Shown here: piece by piece, positions 2,709-23,572 of the stretch | How positions within the stretch are numbered: the stretch's first letter is position 1 | Layout of the letters: the number at the start of each line of letters is the position of its first letter | Source of the DNA: Acidobacteriota bacterium | GTDB taxonomy: Bacteria; Acidobacteriota; UBA4820; DSQY01 | Direction of reading: 5' to 3' | Assembly (NCBI GenBank): GCA_049967655.1 | Contig: JBMFSH010000032.1 | Coordinates: 1 to 29,984, forward strand | DNA: 29,984 bases | Notes under the pieces: generated by a model | The model's input: the letters and a program-made list of their open reading frames with translations, nothing else | Databases searched by the model: none | Told to the model about the DNA's origin: nothing | Position numbers and translations under genes: made by a program

Positions 2709-5700
2709 CTACGCGGCGCCCTCGGCGGTGGCCTCCTCCCGCACGGGCTTGGGCACGACGATCCCACGGATGGCCCAGGCGCGGGAGATGCTGAGGGCGA
2801 GGCCGCCGCGGTCATCCTCCGCCTTGCCCTCCACCACCAGCGGCCTCCCGGACGTGATGAGCTCGCCGAAGGCCTGGTAGGCGCGCGGGAAAAAGACCAG
2901 CTCCGTGAGGCCCGTGGGGTCTTCGAGGGTGGCAAAGGCCATGCCCTCTTTCCCCTTGCGGGTGGAGATGCACTTGTAGGTGATGACTTGGCCCCAGACG
3001 CGCGCCGTTCTGCCCGCCCTCCCTGGCAGGTCTCCCGCGTGCGTGTAGCCCAGCCCCTCGGCCCACTCCAGCAGGGGCGTCAGCGGATGCGCGGTCACCG
3101 CGTAGCCGAGGGTACGCACTTCGCCGGCAAGGGTCTCGGCTAGGGAGAGGGATGTTGAATGGGCGTGAATCAGAGAGCCAGGGGGACAGGGAGACCAGGA
3201 GAAAATGTTTCTTCCGCTGTTTCTCTGGTTCTCTGTTTCCCTGTTTCTCGCCGTGCTGGTCCCTGCCTTCCCAGACCGCAACCAACTTATCAACACACCA
3301 CGATCTATCCCGAATCCATCGCACGCCCCCGCGCGAACGAGGATCTCTATCTCATCCGAACGGATGCGGCGGCGCAGGCGGGAGCAGAGGTCGGCGAAGG
3401 AGCGGTAGGGCCCCTCGCCGCGCTCCTCGAAGAGCGCATCCAACGCCGAGGGCCGAAGGCCGCGCAGGGTGAAGAAGCCGCAGCGGAGGAGGTTCCCCTT
3501 CCCCGCGAAGTCGCTGCCGGAGGCGTTCACGTCCGGCGGCAAGACCTGAAGCCCCCAGCGCCGCGCCTCCTCCACGTAGGCCGCCGTGCCGTAGAAGCCG
3601 CCCTGGTTGTTCACGAGCGCCGCGAAGAACTCGGCGGGGTGGTGCGCCTTCAGGTAGGCCACCTGGTAGGAGAGCTGGGCGAAGGAGGCGCTGTGGGCCT
3701 TGCAGAAGGCGTAGCCCGCGAAGGACTTGATCTGCGCCCAGAGCTCCGCCAGCACGAGAGCGGCGATGCCCCGCTCGCGGCCCTTCTCGAAGAAGGAGCC
3801 CGCGAGCGACTCCATCTCGGCTCGGCTTCGGTACTTGCCGCTCATGGCCCGGCGCAGGGAGTCCGCCTCGGCTAGCGAAAGCCCCACGAACTCGTGGGCC
3901 ACGCGGATCACGTCCTCCTGGTAGACCATGACGCCGAAGGTGTCCCTGAGGATGGGCTCCAGCTCCGGCGCCGCGTACTGGGGCGGCTCCTCGTCCAGCC
4001 GGCGCTTCACGTAGGCCTCCATCATGCCCGACTCGCTCACGCCGGGGCGGATGATGGAGGAGACCGCCGTCAGGTCTCGGAAGGTGCGCGTCTTGAGGCG
4101 CTGGAGCAGCAGGCGCATGCCGGGCGACTCGATGTAGAAGCAGCCCATGCTGCGGCCCTGCGAGAGGAGGGCGTTGGTCTGAGCATCGCTGTAGGTGCGC
4201 TCCGGGGGGAAAACGGGCGGAGAGGCGCCCGTGTGGTCCTTCACCGCCGCCACCGCGTCCACGAGCACGCCCAGGGAGCGGTTGCCTAAGAGGTCAATCT
4301 TCACCAGCCCGAGCTCCTCCACGTCAACCATGTCACACTGCGTGATGGCCACACCCTTGGCGGCCCGCTCCAGCGAGAGCCGCTGCGTGAGCGGGATGGG
4401 CGAGACCACCACGCCGCCGCAGTGGACCGAGAGATGGCGCGGGAAGCCGTCGATCCAGCGCGCCACCTCCAGCAGGTCCTGCCACGGCCGCTCCTTGAGG
4501 GGCGCCCGGCGCGACTCGGGCCGCGAGGCCAGGGCCTGTGTGAAGTGCTCGAAGGAGGTGTGCGGGATGGCCCGCGCGATGACGCCGATCTCCTCCTCGG
4601 GCACGCTCAGGGCCTTGCCCACCTCCCGGAAGCCCGAGCGCGCGGAGAAGGTGTTGTGCGTGGCGATCATGCAGACGTTCTCGTCGCCGTAGGTGTGGTA
4701 GACGTGCCGGATGACGTGGTCCCGCTCGCGCCAGGAGAAGTCCAGGTCGATGTCGGGCGGGTTCCGGCGGCCGGGGTTCAGGAAGCGCTCGAAGTAGAGG
4801 CCCTCCGCCACGGGGTCCACGTGCGTGAGGTAGAGGCAGTAGGAGACGAGGCTGGAGGCGCCCGAGCCGCGGCCGATGTTGGGGATGCCCTGGTCGCGCG
4901 CGAAGCGGGCGATGTCCTCCACCACCAGGAAATAGCCCGCGAAGCCCAGGCGCACGATGACCTCCAGCTCCCGCTCCAGCCTTTCGAGATAGACCATGGA
5001 GACGTTGCGCACGCGGCGCGCCAAACCCGCGTACGCGAGGGCCCGCAGCACGCCCTCCTCGGTTTCGCCGGGAGGCAGCGGCGGGTGGGGCAGGAGCCAG
5101 TCGCCCAGGGGCAGCGTCACGTCGCAGGAGGCCGCCAGCTCCCCGGCCGCCTCCAGCGCCGTGGCGCGGGCGCCCTCGCCCGCGAACCGCCGTTCCGCCT
5201 CCGCCGGCGAAAGCAGGTAGTCCCCCGGCCCCGCCTCGGGCGGCAGGTGCTTCACCGCCCGCAGGACCCGGTGGACGGCGTAGCCCGAGGGTTCGGGGAA
5301 GAAGGCCGCCGGCGCGGCGAGGCAGGGCAGGTGGAGCCAGTGGGCCGCGGCTCGGGCGTCCGCATCGGCCTTCGGGTTCCCCGACAGACGCGCGAAGAGG
5401 CTCCCCTCTTTCCCGCTCGCTCCCCCGGAGACCCCGCCACCCGCTTGTTTCAGGGCGTAGAGCAGCGTCACGTCCGAGGCCGCCAGCGCCACGTGCCCCC
5501 CCTCCGTAGCCGCCGCGCACTCTCCCACCCGGTCGAAGCGCTCCGGTTCCAGGTTGCGGCGCGTGATGAGGCGGCAGAGGCGGGAGTACCCCTCCAAATC
5601 TCGCGCAAAGGCGAACAGAGGGGACTTGGGGCTGGGGATCGGGAATTTATTGGGAACAAGGGGAGCTGAACCGTCAGCTTTGGCGGCGTTCTTTTGCCTC

Positions 5701-5939
5701 CGAATTCCCACATCCGAAATCCCAGATGTCGTCCCCGTGATCTCCGCTCCCAGGACCGGCCGGATGCCCACCGCCTTCGCCGCCTTGTAAAACCGCACCG
5801 CCGCGTAGAGCCCGTCGCGATCGCAGATTCCCGCCGCGGCGTGCCCCCTCTCCGCGCACGCCTTCGCCAGCGTCTCGGGCAGCATGGCCCCGGAGTAGAA
5901 AGTGAAGGCTGTCCGATCGACAAGCGGCACGAACGCCAT
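2709..5939 (-). CDS. dnaE2: DNA polymerase III alpha-family polymerase, second/error-prone type (DnaE2-like), ~1076 aa
   Basis: Degenerate PHP start (VDRTAFTFYSG), GRGSGASS, FERFLN, catalytic PDIDLDF, KIDLLG, VYQED, YAFCKAH and a C-terminal OB fold. Start ATG 5939 chosen by homology. The dnaE2 label rests on the degenerate PHP and the DUF72/S24-repressor context. Confidence 0.88.
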   Translation of the reverse strand: MAFVPLVDRTAFTFYSGAMLPETLAKACAERGHAAAGICDRDGLYAAVRFYKAAKAVGIRPVLGAEITGTTSGISDVGIRRQKNAAKADGSAPLVPNKFPIPSPKSPLFAFARDLEGYSRLCRLITRRNLEPERFDRVGECAAATEGGHVALAASDVTLLYALKQAGGGVSGGASGKEGSLFARLSGNPKADADARAAAHWLHLPCLAAPAAFFPEPSGYAVHRVLRAVKHLPPEAGPGDYLLSPAEAERRFAGEGARATALEAAGELAASCDVTLPLGDWLLPHPPLPPGETEEGVLRALAYAGLARRVRNVSMVYLERLERELEVIVRLGFAGYFLVVEDIARFARDQGIPNIGRGSGASSLVSYCLYLTHVDPVAEGLYFERFLNPGRRNPPDIDLDFSWRERDHVIRHVYHTYGDENVCMIATHNTFSARSGFREVGKALSVPEEEIGVIARAIPHTSFEHFTQALASRPESRRAPLKERPWQDLLEVARWIDGFPRHLSVHCGGVVVSPIPLTQRLSLERAAKGVAITQCDMVDVEELGLVKIDLLGNRSLGVLVDAVAAVKDHTGASPPVFPPERTYSDAQTNALLSQGRSMGCFYIESPGMRLLLQRLKTRTFRDLTAVSSIIRPGVSESGMMEAYVKRRLDEEPPQYAAPELEPILRDTFGVMVYQEDVIRVAHEFVGLSLAEADSLRRAMSGKYRSRAEMESLAGSFFEKGRERGIAALVLAELWAQIKSFAGYAFCKAHSASFAQLSYQVAYLKAHHPAEFFAALVNNQGGFYGTAAYVEEARRWGLQVLPPDVNASGSDFAGKGNLLRCGFFTLRGLRPSALDALFEERGEGPYRSFADLCSRLRRRIRSDEIEILVRAGACDGFGIDRGVLISWLRSGKAGTSTARNRETENQRNSGRNIFSWSPCPPGSLIHAHSTSLSLAETLAGEVRTLGYAVTAHPLTPLLEWAEGLGYTHAGDLPGRAGRTARVWGQVITYKCISTRKGKEGMAFATLEDPTGLTELVFFPRAYQAFGELITSGRPLVVEGKAEDDRGGLALSISRAWAIRGIVVPKPVREEATAEGAA

Positions 5940-6138
5940 GGCGCACCCGAGGAAGGCGGAGGTCCTAGGCTGGTGTCCATCCGAAAAAACCGTTTCCGCG
6001 TGGAGAGCGAAGGGTGGAGGGAGGAACGAAGCCCACGCAGGGTCAAACGCTGGGCTGGCGCTCCACTCTCCACTCTCAACCCTCCACCATTCCCATCTGG
6101 ACCTTCCGGATGGGGACAGGACTACTATCCGCATCCAC

Positions 6139-6167
6139 ATTATAGTCATACATGACCATTCTTTCAA
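6139..6167 (-). promoter_or_regulatory. sigma70 promoter for dnaE2 with operator palindrome in the spacer
   Basis: Minus strand TTGAAA-17 nt-TATAAT. TGGTCA-TGTA-TGACTA at 6143-6158 overlaps the -10. Confidence 0.85.
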
Positions 6168-6168
6168 G

Positions 6169-6204
6169 AAAAAAAAGAGGCGGGAGAAATCCAGTCTCCC
6201 GCCT
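6169..6204 (-). terminator. Intrinsic terminator
   Basis: Minus strand AGGCGGGAGA-CTGGATT-TCTCCCGCCT followed by CTTTTTTTT. Confidence 0.9.
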
Positions 6205-6639
6205 ATGAGGGGTTAGGGCTTCTACCAACGGACCCAGTCCGTGGTTTTTCAACAATGAGACTCAGCCGTTCACGATTCGTCACTCCCACTTCACAGCCGA
6301 GCCGAGAGACGGCCTTCGAAGAACGAGGCAGCCAGATGCTCCCCCGCTCCCCCTTGCTGGGGGGCAGATACGGGTGCCTTCGCATTGGTGGGGGGATTCT
6401 CTCTTCCGGGGCGTTCCTGGATGGTTGGCCAGGATGGCCAGAAGCACTCGTCCCTTCGCACGTATGATCCCCCCAACCGCAATGAAGTCTTGGCGGCCCG
6501 CAACGCGGCCTCCCTGAATGGGCTCCTACGAGCAAACGGCTTGCCAAGTCCAGGCCGCTTCGTCGTCTCAACCGAACCCTTTGAAAGGGAACAGGTTGCG
6601 GCTCCTATCCGCGGGCACCGTTCCGAGAAAGAGCGCCCC
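6169..6639 (-). ncRNA. Candidate large structured non-coding RNA (~470 nt), family not recognised
   Basis: Bounded by an ECF-like promoter and a strong terminator. Contains many nested helices, several needing G-U pairs that work only on the minus strand. ORFs across it do not look like proteins. Confidence 0.6.
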
Positions 6640-6644
6640 ATTCG

Positions 6645-6671
6645 TTACGTTCGGCGCCCACCATCGTTACC
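6645..6671 (-). promoter_or_regulatory. Putative ECF-sigma promoter
   Basis: Minus strand GGTAAC-16 nt-CGTAA fits the AAC/CGT ECF architecture. It lies 5 nt upstream of the first hairpin of the candidate RNA. Confidence 0.5.
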
Positions 6672-6849
6672 TTTACGTTACAGATCGCCAGCCCCGCGAC
6701 CTCGCCGAGGATTCTGGACCAGCGTGGGAACCGGAGTGGGGCCTGCTCCTCGGGCGCGCCTCGGGGCGGCGGTGCCGCGGCGCCGCCGAGGCGGGGACGA
6801 GAGACGTCATGGCGGAGGGATCTCGGCCGGCCGCGGCCGGCTTCCTTCC

Positions 6850-7746
6850 TCAGCCCACGCCCGCGAAGAGGGAGCGCTGAAAGACCGTATCGCTAACGGC
6901 CTCCAGCTCGGGGTAGGTTTCGATGAGATCGGGCGGGACAGGCTGCTTGAGGCCCGTGAGGGCAAACTGGACCTGGAAGGCGTTGGCCACGGCCTTGCCC
7001 CGGAAATGGTTGTTGAAGATGAGGATCACCTCCTTGGCCACGGTGGAGGCCTCCCGGACGGCGTTCACCCACGGAGCCAATTCGGCGGCGCTGTAAAGGT
7101 AGTTATACCGCTCGTCCCGGCCCGCCCCCTCGGTAAACCAGGCGGCGGCATTTCGGCCGTGGAAGCGGAAGTAGGCGAGATCCGAGGTAACGGCGCAGGT
7201 GGCTCCGAGGCAGTGGGCCAGGGCCGGCTGATCGATGTTGCAGAAGGCCACGCCGCACTCCCGCAGCATCCGCAGCACATCCTTGGAGCCCCACGAGGCG
7301 TGGCGCAGCTCCACCGCCAGCGGATAGGCGGAAAAGCGGCCGACGAGGGCCAGCAGGGTTTTCCGGTTCTCCTCCGTGTTTTTGAAGGACCAGGGCCACT
7401 GGATGAGCACGGCGGCCAGACGGTGGAAACGCACCAGGGGGTCCACCGCCCGGTGGAAGGCCCGCTCGTCCACCAGAGAGGCTTTGCGCGTATGGGTGAA
7501 CCCCTGGAAGAGCTTCACCGTGAAGCGGAAATCGGGGAGATCCGACACCTTGCGCACCCACTCGCCCACGACGAGGGGATCGGGGATCCGGTAGAAGGTG
7601 CTGTCCACCTCCACCGCGCCCAGGAGCCCCGCGAGGAAAGCGAGGGGGGCGAAACCTCGGCCGGCCCTCGGCGGGTACACCACCCCCTTCCAGTCGGGGT
7701 ACGTCCAGCCGGCTACACCGATGCGGAGGGCGGTTCGTTCCTTCAC
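6850..7746 (-). CDS. DUF72 (YecE-like) TIM-barrel protein
   Basis: Motifs IGVAGWTYPDWKG, VEVDSTFY, FRFTVK, AVELRHASW, YFRFHGRN, YNYLYS and FNNH. GTG start overlaps the upstream stop (GTGA). Confidence 0.92.
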   Translation of the reverse strand: MKERTALRIGVAGWTYPDWKGVVYPPRAGRGFAPLAFLAGLLGAVEVDSTFYRIPDPLVVGEWVRKVSDLPDFRFTVKLFQGFTHTRKASLVDERAFHRAVDPLVRFHRLAAVLIQWPWSFKNTEENRKTLLALVGRFSAYPLAVELRHASWGSKDVLRMLRECGVAFCNIDQPALAHCLGATCAVTSDLAYFRFHGRNAAAWFTEGAGRDERYNYLYSAAELAPWVNAVREASTVAKEVILIFNNHFRGKAVANAFQVQFALTGLKQPVPPDLIETYPELEAVSDTVFQRSLFAGVG

Positions 7747-7982
7747 GGCAGAACCTCAATCACCATCCTGCCCCTGATGGACAGAGACAGCGAAACAGGG
7801 GAACAGGGCAACAGGGAAAAAACGGAGCGGGAGGATCTTCGCACCTGATCGGTAAGAGTGAAACGCTCTTCGGGGGGAAACTTCTTGCTGATTGAGGAAA
7901 CCTCGATGCACGCATCCATCGCGCCCTGGAACACCCGCAGGTCCTGATAGCTCCGGACCGTCGGTTGGGTGTTGGCCTCCAT
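7743..7982 (-). pseudogene. Truncated four-helix-bundle (23S rRNA IVP-like) protein
   Basis: SYQDLRVFQ..FPPEERFTLTDQVRRSSRSV matches the family N-half. The frame then runs into repeat-derived sequence, and the expected ANIAEG half is missing. Confidence 0.8.
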
Positions 7983-8009
7983 CTTTTTCTCCTCCCTGTT
8001 TCCCTGTTT

Positions 8010-8600
8010 CTATCTTTCCCTCACCCACACGATCTTGTAGGCGAAACGGACATCATGGGGCTCCACAACCACGGGCGGATAGAGGGGGTTCACCGATTCG
8101 AGGATGATCCGCCCGCCCGCCTCCCGGTAGCGCTTCACGTACTTCTCGCCGGTCATGAGGCCTATGACGGCATAGTCGCCGCTGATGGGTCTCTTGCGCG
8201 TGTCCACCATGACCACCTGGCCGTCCTCGTACTTGGGCACCATGCTGTCCCCCGCCACCTCCACGCCGAAGCCGTTGGGGTCCGTGAACTGCGGCGGGCG
8301 GGGCAGGAAGTACATGCCGCCACCGGCGGGGTAGCCCTGGTCGGTGAACTCCACCGCCTCCCCGGCGGAGGCAAAGGCCACGACCGGCACCTCCTCGGCC
8401 AGGGGGTTCTCCTGGGTGATCATGGAGAGGGGCACCTCCATGGCTTCGGCGATGGCTTCCAGGGAGCGGAGCGAGGGGGTGATGCGCCCCTTTTCGATGC
8501 GCGCGTAGTTCGGGGGGCTCCATCCCAGGCGCCGCGCCACCTCCGCCTGGGTCAACCCGAGAGACTTTCGAACCGATACGAGCTTCTTCGCAAAATCCAT
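8010..8600 (-). CDS. XRE/Cro-CI HTH plus peptidase S24 autocleaving repressor (LexA/CI-like), 196 aa
   Basis: HTH LTQAEVARRLGWSPPNYARIEKG, Ala-Gly site (ASAG), catalytic GDSM and YVKR. ATG 8600 follows a GGAGGG SD. Confidence 0.92.
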   Translation of the reverse strand: MDFAKKLVSVRKSLGLTQAEVARRLGWSPPNYARIEKGRITPSLRSLEAIAEAMEVPLSMITQENPLAEEVPVVAFASAGEAVEFTDQGYPAGGGMYFLPRPPQFTDPNGFGVEVAGDSMVPKYEDGQVVMVDTRKRPISGDYAVIGLMTGEKYVKRYREAGGRIILESVNPLYPPVVVEPHDVRFAYKIVWVRER

Positions 8601-8619
8601 GACCACCCTCCGCACTATC

Positions 8620-8648
8620 AATATAGTCAGCAATGACCACAGAGTCAA
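8620..8648 (-). promoter_or_regulatory. sigma70 promoter of the repressor with the same operator palindrome
   Basis: Minus strand TTGACT-17 nt-TATATT. TGGTCA-TTGC-TGACTA at 8624-8639. Confidence 0.85.
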
Positions 8649-8694
8649 GCAAGGGCACCGTGCGCGGGTTCCGCGATGGCGCGAGGAGATGGCG

Positions 8695-8783
8695 AGGGGA
8701 CAGGGACAGGAGGAGAGAGGAGAGAGGACAGCAGGAGGCGGACCGTTCCACGGCGTTTTTCCAAATCCCAAATCCCAAATCCC
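8695..8783. repeat. Heptamer-repeat cassette (GGGACAG-type arm, conserved core, CCAAATC arm)
   Basis: Core AGCAGGAGGCGGACCGTTCCACGGCGTTTTTC matches 23637-23668 at 28/32 nt. A degenerate copy lies at ~21903-21985. Confidence 0.85.
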
Positions 8784-8831
8784 TGTCGCGCTTTCCACGG
8801 CTATTCCCCTCCTCCATCGCGGGATTGGGGA
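8782..8831. repeat. 50-bp direct repeat, copy 2
   Basis: Matches 109-158 at 47/50 nt. Confidence 0.95.
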
Positions 8832-8893
8832 CTCACTGTTCACTTTTCACCCAGTGCACTATGATCTTTCCTGGCTGAGTGCGGAGGCGATCC

Positions 8894-9571
8894 ATGGAGA
8901 CGCAACAAGGCGAGCTTCAATTGGGGGATTTCATTAAGGGGCGGCTCCTCTTTCTCGAAGACTACTGCAAGCGGAGAGGGCTGGATTATCCGAAGATTCT
9001 GGCCGAGGTCCAGGCCCAAGCCCTCCGCCTGGCCAGCGCACCGGAGAAGGCCGAGTTCCTTAAGACCCGCCTCTTTTCGGGGATCGTGCTCTCCAGCTCC
9101 TACTTCCCCGACTGGGTAGACAAGGTCCTGCTCGAAGCCATCACCATCGCGCTCAAGGGGCCTGGAGCGCCCCTGCACACCACCTCGTCGCGCATGCCGT
9201 GTATCACCTTCGAGGCGGGGCGGTTCAACGCCCAACGGCAGGCGGACACGGTCTTCAGGGCCTACTTCTCGGGCAAGCGCCCGGAGGAGTGGCTGAAGAG
9301 CGGCTTCGTCCAGATCAACCGCAAGTGTTACGGAGACGCTTTCGCGGACCACATCCAGGTGGAGGAGCTGGGGCCCCGTCGCTTCCGGGTCAGCATCGAC
9401 AACACGGGCGTGGAAAAGGCCGACCAGATGGACTGCTCAACGGGCGTGGGGTACCTGTACGGCGCGCTCGAGAAGCTGGGGGTCGCGGGGCCGCTGGTGA
9501 CCCACGACCGGTGCGGGCTGGCTCCCGGCAGCCCCGATCGGATCTGCGTCTACGAGATCAGCTGGCGGTGA
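8894..9571 (+). CDS. Hypothetical protein with V4R-like C-terminus
   Basis: Coding-like codon usage and a GGAGG SD. C-terminal C..GYLYGALE..VTHDRC..CVYEISW pattern is typical of V4R-like domains. Confidence 0.75.
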   Translation: METQQGELQLGDFIKGRLLFLEDYCKRRGLDYPKILAEVQAQALRLASAPEKAEFLKTRLFSGIVLSSSYFPDWVDKVLLEAITIALKGPGAPLHTTSSRMPCITFEAGRFNAQRQADTVFRAYFSGKRPEEWLKSGFVQINRKCYGDAFADHIQVEELGPRRFRVSIDNTGVEKADQMDCSTGVGYLYGALEKLGVAGPLVTHDRCGLAPGSPDRICVYEISWR

Positions 9572-22482: not shown

Positions 22483-23572
22483 TCACACGACCTTGGCCCG
22501 GAGCGCGGCCTTGATGAAGCCATCCAGATCGCCGTCCAGGACGGCATCGGCGTTGCCGACCTCGACGTCGGTCCGGTGGTCCTTCACGAGGCGGTAGGGA
22601 TGGAGGACGTAGGAGCGGATCTGGCTGCCCCAGGCGATCTCCTTCTTGCTGTCCTCCAGGACCTGCCGCTCCTTGTTCCGCCGCTCGATTTCGAGCTGAT
22701 AGAGGCGGGACTTGAGGATCTTCCAGGCGGTCTCGCGGTTCTGGAGCTGACTGCGCTCGTTCTGGCAGGTCACCACGAGGCCCGAGGGGAAGTGGGTGAT
22801 CCTCACCGCCGTGGAGACCTTGTTGACGTTCTGGCCGCCGTGGCCGCCCGCCCGGAAGATGTCCACGCGGATGTCCTTCTCGTTGATCTCGATCTCGATC
22901 TCGTCGTTGACCTCGGGGGAGACGAAGACCGAGGTGAAGGAGGTGTGCCGCCGGGCGGCCGCATCGAAGGGCGAGATGCGGACGAGGCGGTGCACGCCGC
23001 TCTCGCTCTTGAGGTAGCCGTAAGCGTAGGCCCCCTTGACCATGATCGTGGCCGATTTGATGCCCGCCGTATCGCCGTCCTGGTAATCCAGGAGCTCCAC
23101 CTCGTAGCCGTGGCGCTCGGCCCACCGCACGTACATACGATGGAGCATGAGGGCCCAGTCCTGACTCTCGGTGCCGCCGGCGCCCGGGTGGATGGTCAGG
23201 ATGGCGTTGTTGGGGTCGAGCTCCCCCGAGAGGAGAACCTGGACCTCCAGGTCCGACAGGAAGGGGCGGAAGGCCTCCATGGTCCGGCCGAACTCCTCCG
23301 AAACCTCGTCCTCCTCGAACTCCAGCAGGGTGTCCATGTCCCCCACGAAGCGATCCAGGCGGCGGATCGTTTCGGCTCGAGTCTTGAGGAGCTGCTGCTC
23401 TTTCAGGAGGGTCTTGGCGCGCTGCGGGTCGTTCCAGAATCCTTCGGAACCGGAGACCTGCTCCAGTTCTTGGAGCCGCCGCTGAGTGCCGGCTTCGTCA
23501 AAGACAGCCCCGAAGTTCGGCGGCCTTGTTCTTGAGGGAACGGTACTCCTGTTTGCTCTCTTCCGTAATCAT
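22483..23572 (-). CDS. prfB: Peptide chain release factor 2 with programmed +1 frameshift (join 23572-23501, 23499-22483; 362 aa)
   Basis: MITEESKQEYRSLKNKAAELRGCL ends at CTT TGA C. The +1 frame continues DEAG..FWNDP into ORF 22483..23346, which has the SPF and GGQ motifs. Confidence 0.96.

Follow-up and report, generated by a model that had tools for sequence, protein, structure and literature searches.

The 29,984-nt stretch analyzed here (as a whole, hereafter the window; contig JBMFSH010000032.1 of assembly GCA_049967655.1, an Acidobacteriota bacterium of GTDB lineage UBA4820; DSQY01) carries two near-identical palindromes of the form TRGTCA-N4-TGACTA, each embedded in a predicted promoter. 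To judge from the sequence and its conservation among relatives, both are probably operators of a CI-type repressor that would silence its own gene, a DUF72 gene and a paralog of the replicative polymerase DnaE until DNA damage occurs. The elements on which this reading is built are the following:

2709 to 5939, minus strand: gene of a second DnaE-type polymerase, 1076 aa, DnaE2-like yet divergent (Pfam PHP, DNA_pol3_alpha, finger, HHH_6 and OB)
6139 to 6167, minus strand: predicted promoter of the DnaE paralog, −35 TTGAAA, 17-nt spacer, −10 TATAAT (11/12 in a consensus scan)
6143 to 6158, minus strand: O-pol, candidate operator TGGTCA-TGTA-TGACTA, in the register of O-rep (27.5 bits against a 40-site matrix)
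6850 to 7746, minus strand: DUF72 gene, 298 aa (PF01904, 3e-52; PDB 1vpq, 3.9e-42), the second conserved gene of the repressor operon
8010 to 8600, minus strand: repressor gene, 196 aa, with an N-terminal XRE-type helix-turn-helix (HTH), a linker containing Ala79-Gly80 and a C-terminal S24 peptidase domain (Ser119, Lys156)
8620 to 8648, minus strand: predicted promoter of the repressor operon, −35 TTGACT (8648-8643), 17-nt spacer, −10 TATATT (8625-8620) (10/12 in a consensus scan)
8624 to 8639, minus strand: O-rep, candidate operator TGGTCA-TTGC-TGACTA, overlapping the spacer and reaching 2 nt into the −10 (21.1 bits against the 40-site matrix)

On the plus strand the two sites read TATAGTCA-TACA-TGACCA (6141-6158) and TATAGTCA-GCAA-TGACCA (8622-8639), so that, as an initial annotation of the window had stated, they are identical save for the 4-nt center; in the minus-strand orientation of the genes they become TGGTCA-TGTA-TGACTATA (O-pol) and TGGTCA-TTGC-TGACTATA (O-rep). 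The same annotation had placed them in a shared register within sigma70-like promoters with 17-nt spacers, overlapping the −10, and the promoter scan bears this out: in both promoters the box occupies the spacer and its last two bases are the first two of the −10 hexamer. This predicted sigma70-type arrangement, with hexamers 17 nt apart and an operator overlapping the −10, is found both in the window scan and in 40 promoters anchored on the box, and an anchored comparison recovers the layout of the repressor promoter at orthologous loci. The 3.3 kb between 5800 and 9100 contain four promoter-like sites against a mean of 0.2 in shuffled sequence, and a scan of the window allowing up to two mismatches returned five strand-matches against 0.50 expected, a number reached by none of 100 shuffles. 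Four of the five are O-pol and O-rep, each read on both strands, and the remaining one is a two-mismatch match at 23027.

At the scale of the genome (147 contigs, 3,139,375 bases, GC 0.667, 99.3% complete), the exact pattern occurs twice, at the two sites of the window and nowhere else, with about 0.09 copies expected from base composition; the looser core GTCA-N4-TGAC is present in 11 places. A 16-position matrix built from 40 distinct sites of the order, symmetrized (25.1 bits; training range 20.5-31.8), gives its third-best score in the genome at 16.3 bits, and only 16 positions exceed 8 bits. The third-best site (C22:9929) was rejected as a target, being inside an open reading frame (ORF) whose third codon positions have a GC content of 0.91; likewise not taken as a target was an intergenic site of 11.9 bits (C1:99462, TTGTCA-TGAT-TGACTT) between a BioY gene and a 209-aa ORF without a Pfam family. 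As the matrix scan reveals no further site, the box is to be regarded as the probable operator of a module of two promoters and three genes and not as a genome-wide SOS box. The initial annotation had proposed a new SOS-like box and suggested looking for it upstream of recA, uvr and dinB genes: its repressor/operator part is supported by comparison, whereas the genome-wide network is not, the scan for such genes being negative in this genome and the box being confined to two promoters.

The box is conserved where the proposed mechanism would need it. A protein search returned 88 relatives of the repressor, mostly of 196 aa and 63-95% identical, the few named ones being labeled Acidobacteriota. 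Sixteen full-length orthologous loci (66-99% identity) were picked by protein similarity only, all of them from metagenome-assembled genomes of Acidobacteriota or Thermoanaerobaculia. Thirteen of these have GTCA-N4-TGAC followed by TATA, in the −10 register, ahead of the repressor start; the usual layout is TTGAC(A/T), a few bases, and T(G/A)GTCA-N4-TGAC-TATA(T/A)T. The other three, at 66% identity, show a copy with one mismatch in register, a GTCA-N4-TGAC-like site about 18 nt upstream that extends onto the −35, or both. DUF72 is the next gene after the repressor in 15 loci, and in the sixteenth the contig ends first. The polymerase lies within reach in ten loci, which fall into two arrangements. 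In the three loci at 66% identity, repressor, DUF72 and polymerase form a tight operon behind a single operator region, and in the remaining seven, unrelated DNA separates DUF72 from the polymerase, which in every case (7/7) is preceded by a separate box at 57-145 nt from its start. In loci of one genus (L009, 6395-9457, minus strand; also at the same place in L008 and L019) the interposed DNA is an opposite-strand gene for a 1020-aa multihaem cytochrome/PKD protein, a separation which, at the level of gene order, shows the polymerase promoter and its box to be an independent unit.

A census of the order, in which the exact TRGTCA-N4-TGACTA was sought in all 29 genomes, every site was fetched and the window proteins were located by tblastn, leads to the same picture. 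Matches occur in 22 of the 29 genomes and in seven of the eight genera, mostly as exactly two distinct sites per genome; a control with the reversed pattern gave three matches over all 29 genomes together. Among 41 distinct exact sites, 20 are directly upstream of a repressor ortholog and 19 of a polymerase ortholog. The other two are intragenic and were taken as chance: one is within a DNA-methylase ORF (L118 in G015) and one at the end of a metallophosphoesterase ORF that precedes a CHAD-domain gene (L107 in G028). Across the seven genera the half-sites are constant, and the 4-nt center and the flanks vary freely. Conservation upstream of orthologs, which had been named beforehand as the finding on which the repressor/operator reading would stand or fall, thus extends to 13 of 16 repressor loci, all seven separate polymerase promoters and 39 of 41 sites in the order.

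The box is moreover inherited together with the two genes that it precedes. In one genome (G002) the repressor and polymerase sites are 17 kb apart on one contig and the polymerase retains its box; seven other genomes have them on different contigs, which alone is no proof of separation. Repressor, DUF72, polymerase paralog and box are all absent from G004 (97% complete), where only a DnaE1-like match at 34% identity was found. G008 (91% complete) retains both repressor and DUF72, its box being a CGGTCA variant, and the polymerase paralog was not found there. Full-length repressor orthologs are confined to the order (in family f1, 20 of 24 genomes and that of the window; in f2, 4 of 4). A search of 401 sampled genomes of the phylum matched 28, of which three outside the order cover the S24 part only, at 32-37% identity. 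Around more distant S24 homologs (64 loci, L020-L083, from Streptococcus, Phycisphaerae, Prosthecobacter and others), tblastn at E ≤1e-6 found no DUF72 or polymerase nearby. In G018 (C24:312503-315767, L121) the polymerase ortholog gives a match in two pieces, the second with one in-frame TAA, and DUF72 of that contig (L010) likewise falls into two frames that overlap; these splits may be frameshifts or assembly errors.

The repressor has the architecture expected of a self-cleaving regulator. It matches HTH_3 (1.4e-14) and Peptidase_S24 (PF00717, 2.1e-17), as well as HTH_31 and HTH_19, and over residues 1-194 it matches the phage family phrog_4, 'transcriptional repressor' (6.6e-35), being thus phage-repressor-like along its full length. 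An alignment to lambda CI and LexA chains takes in the GDSM and VKR(Y) motifs of its C-terminal domain. Among 20 aligned family members, with identities as low as 45%, S119 does not vary, and A79, G80 and K156 are retained in 90% or more; the XRE-S24 repressor with an Ala-Gly site announced by the initial annotation is therefore a sound description of the protein. With respect to canonical LexA, one half of the definition is present, namely the S24 domain with its Ser/Lys dyad and linker Ala-Gly, and the other half is not: a Pfam search found no LexA winged-helix domain (LexA_DNA_bind, PF01726) in the repressor, which scores 30.9 bits against TIGR00498 (cut-off 110.95) in a match confined to residues 64-191. 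Nor does its apparent regulon include recA, uvr and the core SOS genes.

What the data describe instead is a non-canonical, LexA-like regulator: an XRE/CI-type HTH fused to an S24 peptidase domain, in a lineage that lacks canonical LexA at the level of the family, with a palindrome, conserved across species, in its own promoter and in that of a putative damage-tolerance gene. LexA_DNA_bind was found in none of 25 genomes of the family, including the 99.3% complete genome of the window; in the sister family it exceeds the cut-off in one of four genomes and falls below it in one more. A RecA gene is present (C4:127295).

The genome encodes two DnaE proteins (two PF07733 matches), of which the one on C4 is the housekeeping DnaE1 (1427 bits, cut-off 1002). 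The paralog in the window falls below the cut-offs of both NCBIfam models, with 664 bits against 1002 for NF004226 (DnaE1) and 574 against 939 for NF004225 ('error-prone DNA polymerase'), and its orthologs in L009 and L018 score alike on both. It retains the PDIDLDF and KIDLLGN motifs, which we take to hold the catalytic aspartates of the polymerase, and has lost the N-terminal HxH-type motif of the PHP domain; its C-terminus is shorter than that of DnaE1. As for possible partners, a profile search of the genome with the ImuA model matched recA alone, below cut-off; the single Y-family (IMS) gene is on another contig (C19:2990) and lacks the box; and no ImuA or second ImuB-type Y-family gene was found in the genome. 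Neither ImuA nor ImuB was seen next to the orthologous loci, the 16 loci having been searched for the window genes only and the intervening ORFs examined in L009 alone. Because of the scores below cut-off, the ImuA model that hits only recA and the solitary, distant IMS gene, 'dnaE2' denotes a resemblance and not demonstrated membership. The label given by the initial annotation is correct in that a second dnaE exists beside DnaE1, and fails at the error-prone cut-off and in the ImuA/ImuB partners, which were not found.

Elsewhere in the phylum such polymerases can stand behind a true lexA. Among the 401 genomes, orthologs of the window polymerase at 51-91% identity are confined to the order, and paralogs at 37-45% identity occur in 44 other genomes (the polymerase tally of 69/401 includes the unpublished genome G169, on which no other result depends). 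In three of four loci examined for the nearest paralogs outside the order (41-44% identity), a canonical lexA and a Y-family polymerase lie upstream in the same orientation: the order is lexA-PolIV-dnaE in G057 and G045 and lexA-DUF6610-ORF-IMS-dnaE in G072, and the fourth locus has neither gene. To go by these cassettes, the CI-type repressor and DUF72 would here stand in the places that LexA and the Y-family polymerase hold in related Acidobacteriota. With the canonical LexAs of the cassettes the repressor shares only 28-32% identity in its S24 domain, and it is therefore a replacement and not a LexA with a swapped head. None of GTTC-N7-GTTC, GAAC-N4-GTTC, CTGT-N8-ACAG and GTCA-N4-TGAC lies within 200 nt upstream of the three cassette lexA genes. 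Two details of these cassettes are recorded for themselves. In G072 (L149, C6, 6020-7344 in locus coordinates) lexA and the Y-family polymerase are separated by a DUF6610 gene and by a 212-aa ORF with no assigned family. In G057 (L146, C75) the promoter of the canonical lexA at 959 has two tandem copies of GGTGTA-N6-TACAC around its −10, at 60-10 nt before the gene; GGTGTA-N6-TACAC may be another LexA motif of the phylum.

Taken together, these observations suggest the following switch. A dimer of the repressor would bind TRGTCA-N4-TGACTA, whose half-site centers are 10 bp apart, and the occupied box, lying over the spacer and −10 of both promoters, would block RNA polymerase. The off state would thereby cover the repressor-DUF72 operon and the separately transcribed second DnaE. 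Upon DNA damage, filaments of RecA on single-stranded DNA would stimulate self-cleavage at Ala79-Gly80 by the Ser119/Lys156 dyad, which would part the HTH from the dimerization domain and derepress both promoters, and autoregulation would then reset the system. The result would be a self-contained damage-tolerance module of three genes in place of the lexA/Y-family/dnaE cassette of other Acidobacteriota. That the XRE-S24 protein represses its own operon and dnaE2 through this box, as the initial annotation had proposed, is hence a prediction that comparative genomics supports.

Several points weigh against this model. The genomes compared are relatives, so that the counts given above overstate independence, and 12 of the 16 columns of the matrix were set by the pattern used to collect its sites, which makes it partly circular. 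Two more weak Peptidase_S24 matches (27.7 and 26.1 bits) exist elsewhere in the genome. The polymerase promoter may be a duplicate of the repressor promoter, as the polymerase leader of G019 intimates, and part of their likeness could then reflect ancestry and not selection. Finally, recA (C4), dinB (C19) and all other genes are devoid of the box, the matrix scan giving nothing above 8 bits near recA or dinB; the link to damage therefore rests on the S24 domain, the polymerase target and analogy.

This last point is also what favors the strongest competing explanation, according to which this repressor does act through the box, with no drive from RecA or damage: the S24 domain would only dimerize or answer another signal, and the module would be constitutively autoregulated or otherwise induced. 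The box spares recA, uvr and the other classical SOS genes. This explanation is nevertheless unlikely, since the whole family keeps the Ala-Gly site together with the Ser/Lys dyad, the target is a spare DnaE of the sort that lies behind canonical lexA in related members of the phylum, and RecA is present.

Alternatively, a different regulator might bind the palindrome and the XRE-S24 protein recognize another sequence; in line with this, no such box lies anywhere in the locus of a repressor paralog from one relative (L020, 48% identity). We regard this as quite improbable, given that the box accompanies the repressor gene in 20 genomes and is gone with it in G004, and that its 6+4+6 dyad, with centers 10 bp apart, suits an HTH dimer. 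The genes flanking the repressor upstream differ between genera, so no other conserved neighbor is a candidate regulator. In addition, autoregulation through a dyad in the own promoter is the rule for this class, as electrophoretic mobility shift assays have shown for regulators of Bacteroidetes (PMC8565304) and for FddR (PMC13148647).

Least credible of all is the idea that the near-identical 18-nt pair represents the ends or attachment repeats of a mobile element carrying the repressor and DUF72, or remnants of a promoter duplication, devoid of operator function: the sites do form direct repeats around a 2.5-kb segment, the repressor is phage-repressor-like and the polymerase leader of some genera looks copied from the repressor leader, but the polymerase box is kept 17 kb from the repressor in G002, the f2 loci have a single site before a tight operon, the half-sites stay constant across seven of eight genera as neighboring bases diverge, and the ORFs examined include neither integrase nor phage genes.

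A wider version of the module can be entertained, though we consider it doubtful: the whole transcriptional damage response of the family would be reduced to this one module, a phage-derived CI repressor having displaced LexA in situ and DUF72 having taken over from the Y-family polymerase the role of working partner to an ImuB-independent DnaE, with the dyad and the half-sites 34 bp to either side of it holding a higher-order repressor complex of more than one dimer. Were this true, DUF72 would be a lesion-processing enzyme that passes substrates to a translesion or gap-filling DnaE.

The half-sites invoked here are two auxiliary elements of the window:

6119 to 6124, minus strand: TAGTCC, half-site-like, 34 nt downstream of the first base of O-pol
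8600 to 8605, minus strand: TGGTCA, half-site located downstream in O-rep orientation, 34 nt from the first base of that operator, and ending in the A of the repressor ATG

The second of these was already visible to the initial annotation as an additional TGACCA over the repressor start codon, and is confirmed by the coordinates (TGACCA at 8600-8605 on the plus strand, CAT at 8598-8600); the first was not part of it. Both window promoters thus have a downstream element at exactly +34 (TGGTCA, 8605-8600; TAGTCC, 6124-6119). Among 40 promoters of the order anchored on the box (18 of the repressor, 18 of the polymerase and 4 unclassified), RGTC[ACG] follows 34 nt (±1) downstream of the first half-site in 14/18, 8/18 and 3/4, respectively. 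In repressor promoters the element overlaps the Shine-Dalgarno (SD)-ATG region, and in polymerase promoters there is no start codon at that position. On the other side of the dyad, 8 of 18 polymerase promoters have a right-type half-site, GTGACY, at 34 nt upstream of the right half-site of the box, against 1 of 18 repressor promoters; the upstream and downstream positions mirror each other about the dyad. The polymerase leader of G019 resembles a decayed copy of the repressor leader, the leader motif that they share including an SD-ATG-like remnant. The auxiliary half-sites may bind further subunits of the repressor, or else be a vestige of promoter duplication.

The remaining features between repressor and polymerase are these:

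5960 to 6118, minus strand: hairpin-forming repeat element of about 150 nt, in the polymerase leader directly after the +34 half-site
6178 to 6204, minus strand: strong intrinsic terminator with a 10-bp stem, seven G-C pairs and a T-run, just upstream of the polymerase promoter
7743 to 7982, minus strand: 79-aa ORF, a partial four-helix-bundle protein ('23S rRNA IVP'; PF05635, 3.4e-10, profile positions 1-44 of 106)

Repressor, 79-aa ORF, DUF72 and polymerase genes are all on the minus strand. The 79-aa ORF recurs at the same place in only two of the 16 orthologous loci (L004 and L011) and, as far as gene content tells, is an insert outside the conserved cassette; near this truncated ORF (flanks 7780-7830 and 8690-8790) there are purine-rich low-complexity runs of the GGGACAG and GGAGAGA types and three tandem copies of CCAAATC. 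DUF72 proteins are UvdE-like TIM barrels of unknown function that range from E. coli to archaea; the one in the window, the only copy in the genome, also matches the solved DUF72 structures 1vpy/1ztv.

Between the DUF72 stop and the terminator, about 650 nt (6205-6850) are 87-88% identical to same-genus relatives, with no frame preferred by tblastx, no Pfam match for the ORFs of this interval and no convincing ORF. Other genera likewise have several hundred bases from DUF72 to the same conserved terminator hairpin. We treated the interval as decayed or non-coding sequence; it may represent a decayed gene, an RNA so far unrecognized or an extended 3′ untranslated region. Three runs of RNA data consulted for 5900-8700 contained next to none of its sequence, and a search of 5800-9000 against Rfam gave only sub-threshold matches to miRNA families (at most 31.4 bits against gathering thresholds of at least 90), taken as chance. 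The terminator, whose hairpin is 84-92% conserved in L090, L012, L007 and L006, is predicted to end the repressor-DUF72 transcript.

The repeat element folds with a minimum free energy of −78.7 kcal/mol over 166 nt and includes a weak terminator-like hairpin (6011-5995). Copies of it at 74-88% identity are present on at least C31, C61, C3, C60, C12 and C14 (C31 88% over 143 nt, C61 81% over 154 nt, C3 77% over 142 nt). Same-genus relatives lack the element, their leader being about 53 nt long against about 204 nt in the window.

A CI-type repressor controlling a spare polymerase from a palindrome would join a small number of known systems, among the closest of which are the non-canonical LexA proteins of Bacteroidetes as portrayed in PMC8565304: these too are CI/XRE-type S24 repressors of a lineage without canonical LexA, autoregulate through dyad-spacer palindromes and control error-prone polymerases. 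The motifs differ, being CTAA-N5-TTAG and GGA-N5-TCC there and TRGTCA-N4-TGACTA here, as do the regulons, which according to the same paper comprise recA, recN, umuDC, dinB, ruvB and others in Bacteroidetes against two promoters here. The phylum differs as well, in that the word Acidobacteria does not appear in PMC8565304. FddR of Francisella, according to PMC13148647, is likewise a co-opted phage-type S24 repressor with a small self-contained damage unit and autoregulation through a palindrome, and in the proposal of its authors such units can serve to rebuild SOS networks. It acts through GTG-N11-CAC on itself and divergently transcribed genes, whereas the present system combines a co-directional operon with a downstream or unlinked polymerase, in a lineage that is free-living and environmental.

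UmuDAb of Acinetobacter, according to PMC11332147 and PMC7273328, is an S24 protein of a LexA-less group that represses error-prone polymerase genes; derived from UmuD, dependent on the co-repressor DdrR and binding an atypical box of unusually large size, it differs from the CI-like protein and compact 16-bp dyad described here. DdiA of Myxococcus, an XRE regulator of dnaE2, was rejected as a mechanistic relative, for it is described as an activator and 'S24' is absent from the text that describes it. The cassettes of other Acidobacteriota share with the window a repressor gene in first and a second DnaE in last position, and differ in having a LexA winged helix for the XRE HTH and a Y-family polymerase at the place of DUF72.

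Another known cassette with a second DnaE in last position is the imuA-imuB-dnaE2 mutagenesis cassette, which is named in PMC8565304. DUF72 is, according to PMC11791011, overrepresented in the neighborhood of PolB2 translesion operons and resembles UV-damage endonuclease in structure; with DUF72 placed under the same proposed switch as a spare replicative-type polymerase, these remarks lead to a testable hypothesis of a role in damage processing.

In the literature searched, whose coverage excludes subscription journals, neither the motif nor the cassette was found described. If the proposed switch is right, the theme of the S24 repressor swap reaches, after Bacteroidetes, Acinetobacter and Francisella, a fourth, little-studied uncultured group, and supplies a new and very clean candidate binding motif. 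A damage regulon as small as two promoters, in a bacterium with RecA and without LexA, bears on how SOS networks are lost and rebuilt; the interest is moderate for SOS specialists, and somewhat wider where the function of DUF72 is concerned. In summary, XRE/CI-type S24 repressors as substitutes for LexA are already on record for Bacteroidetes and Francisella (PMC8565304, PMC13148647), and what sets the present system apart from them is its motif, its phylum, its regulon of two promoters and the pairing of DUF72 with an ImuB-less DnaE paralog.

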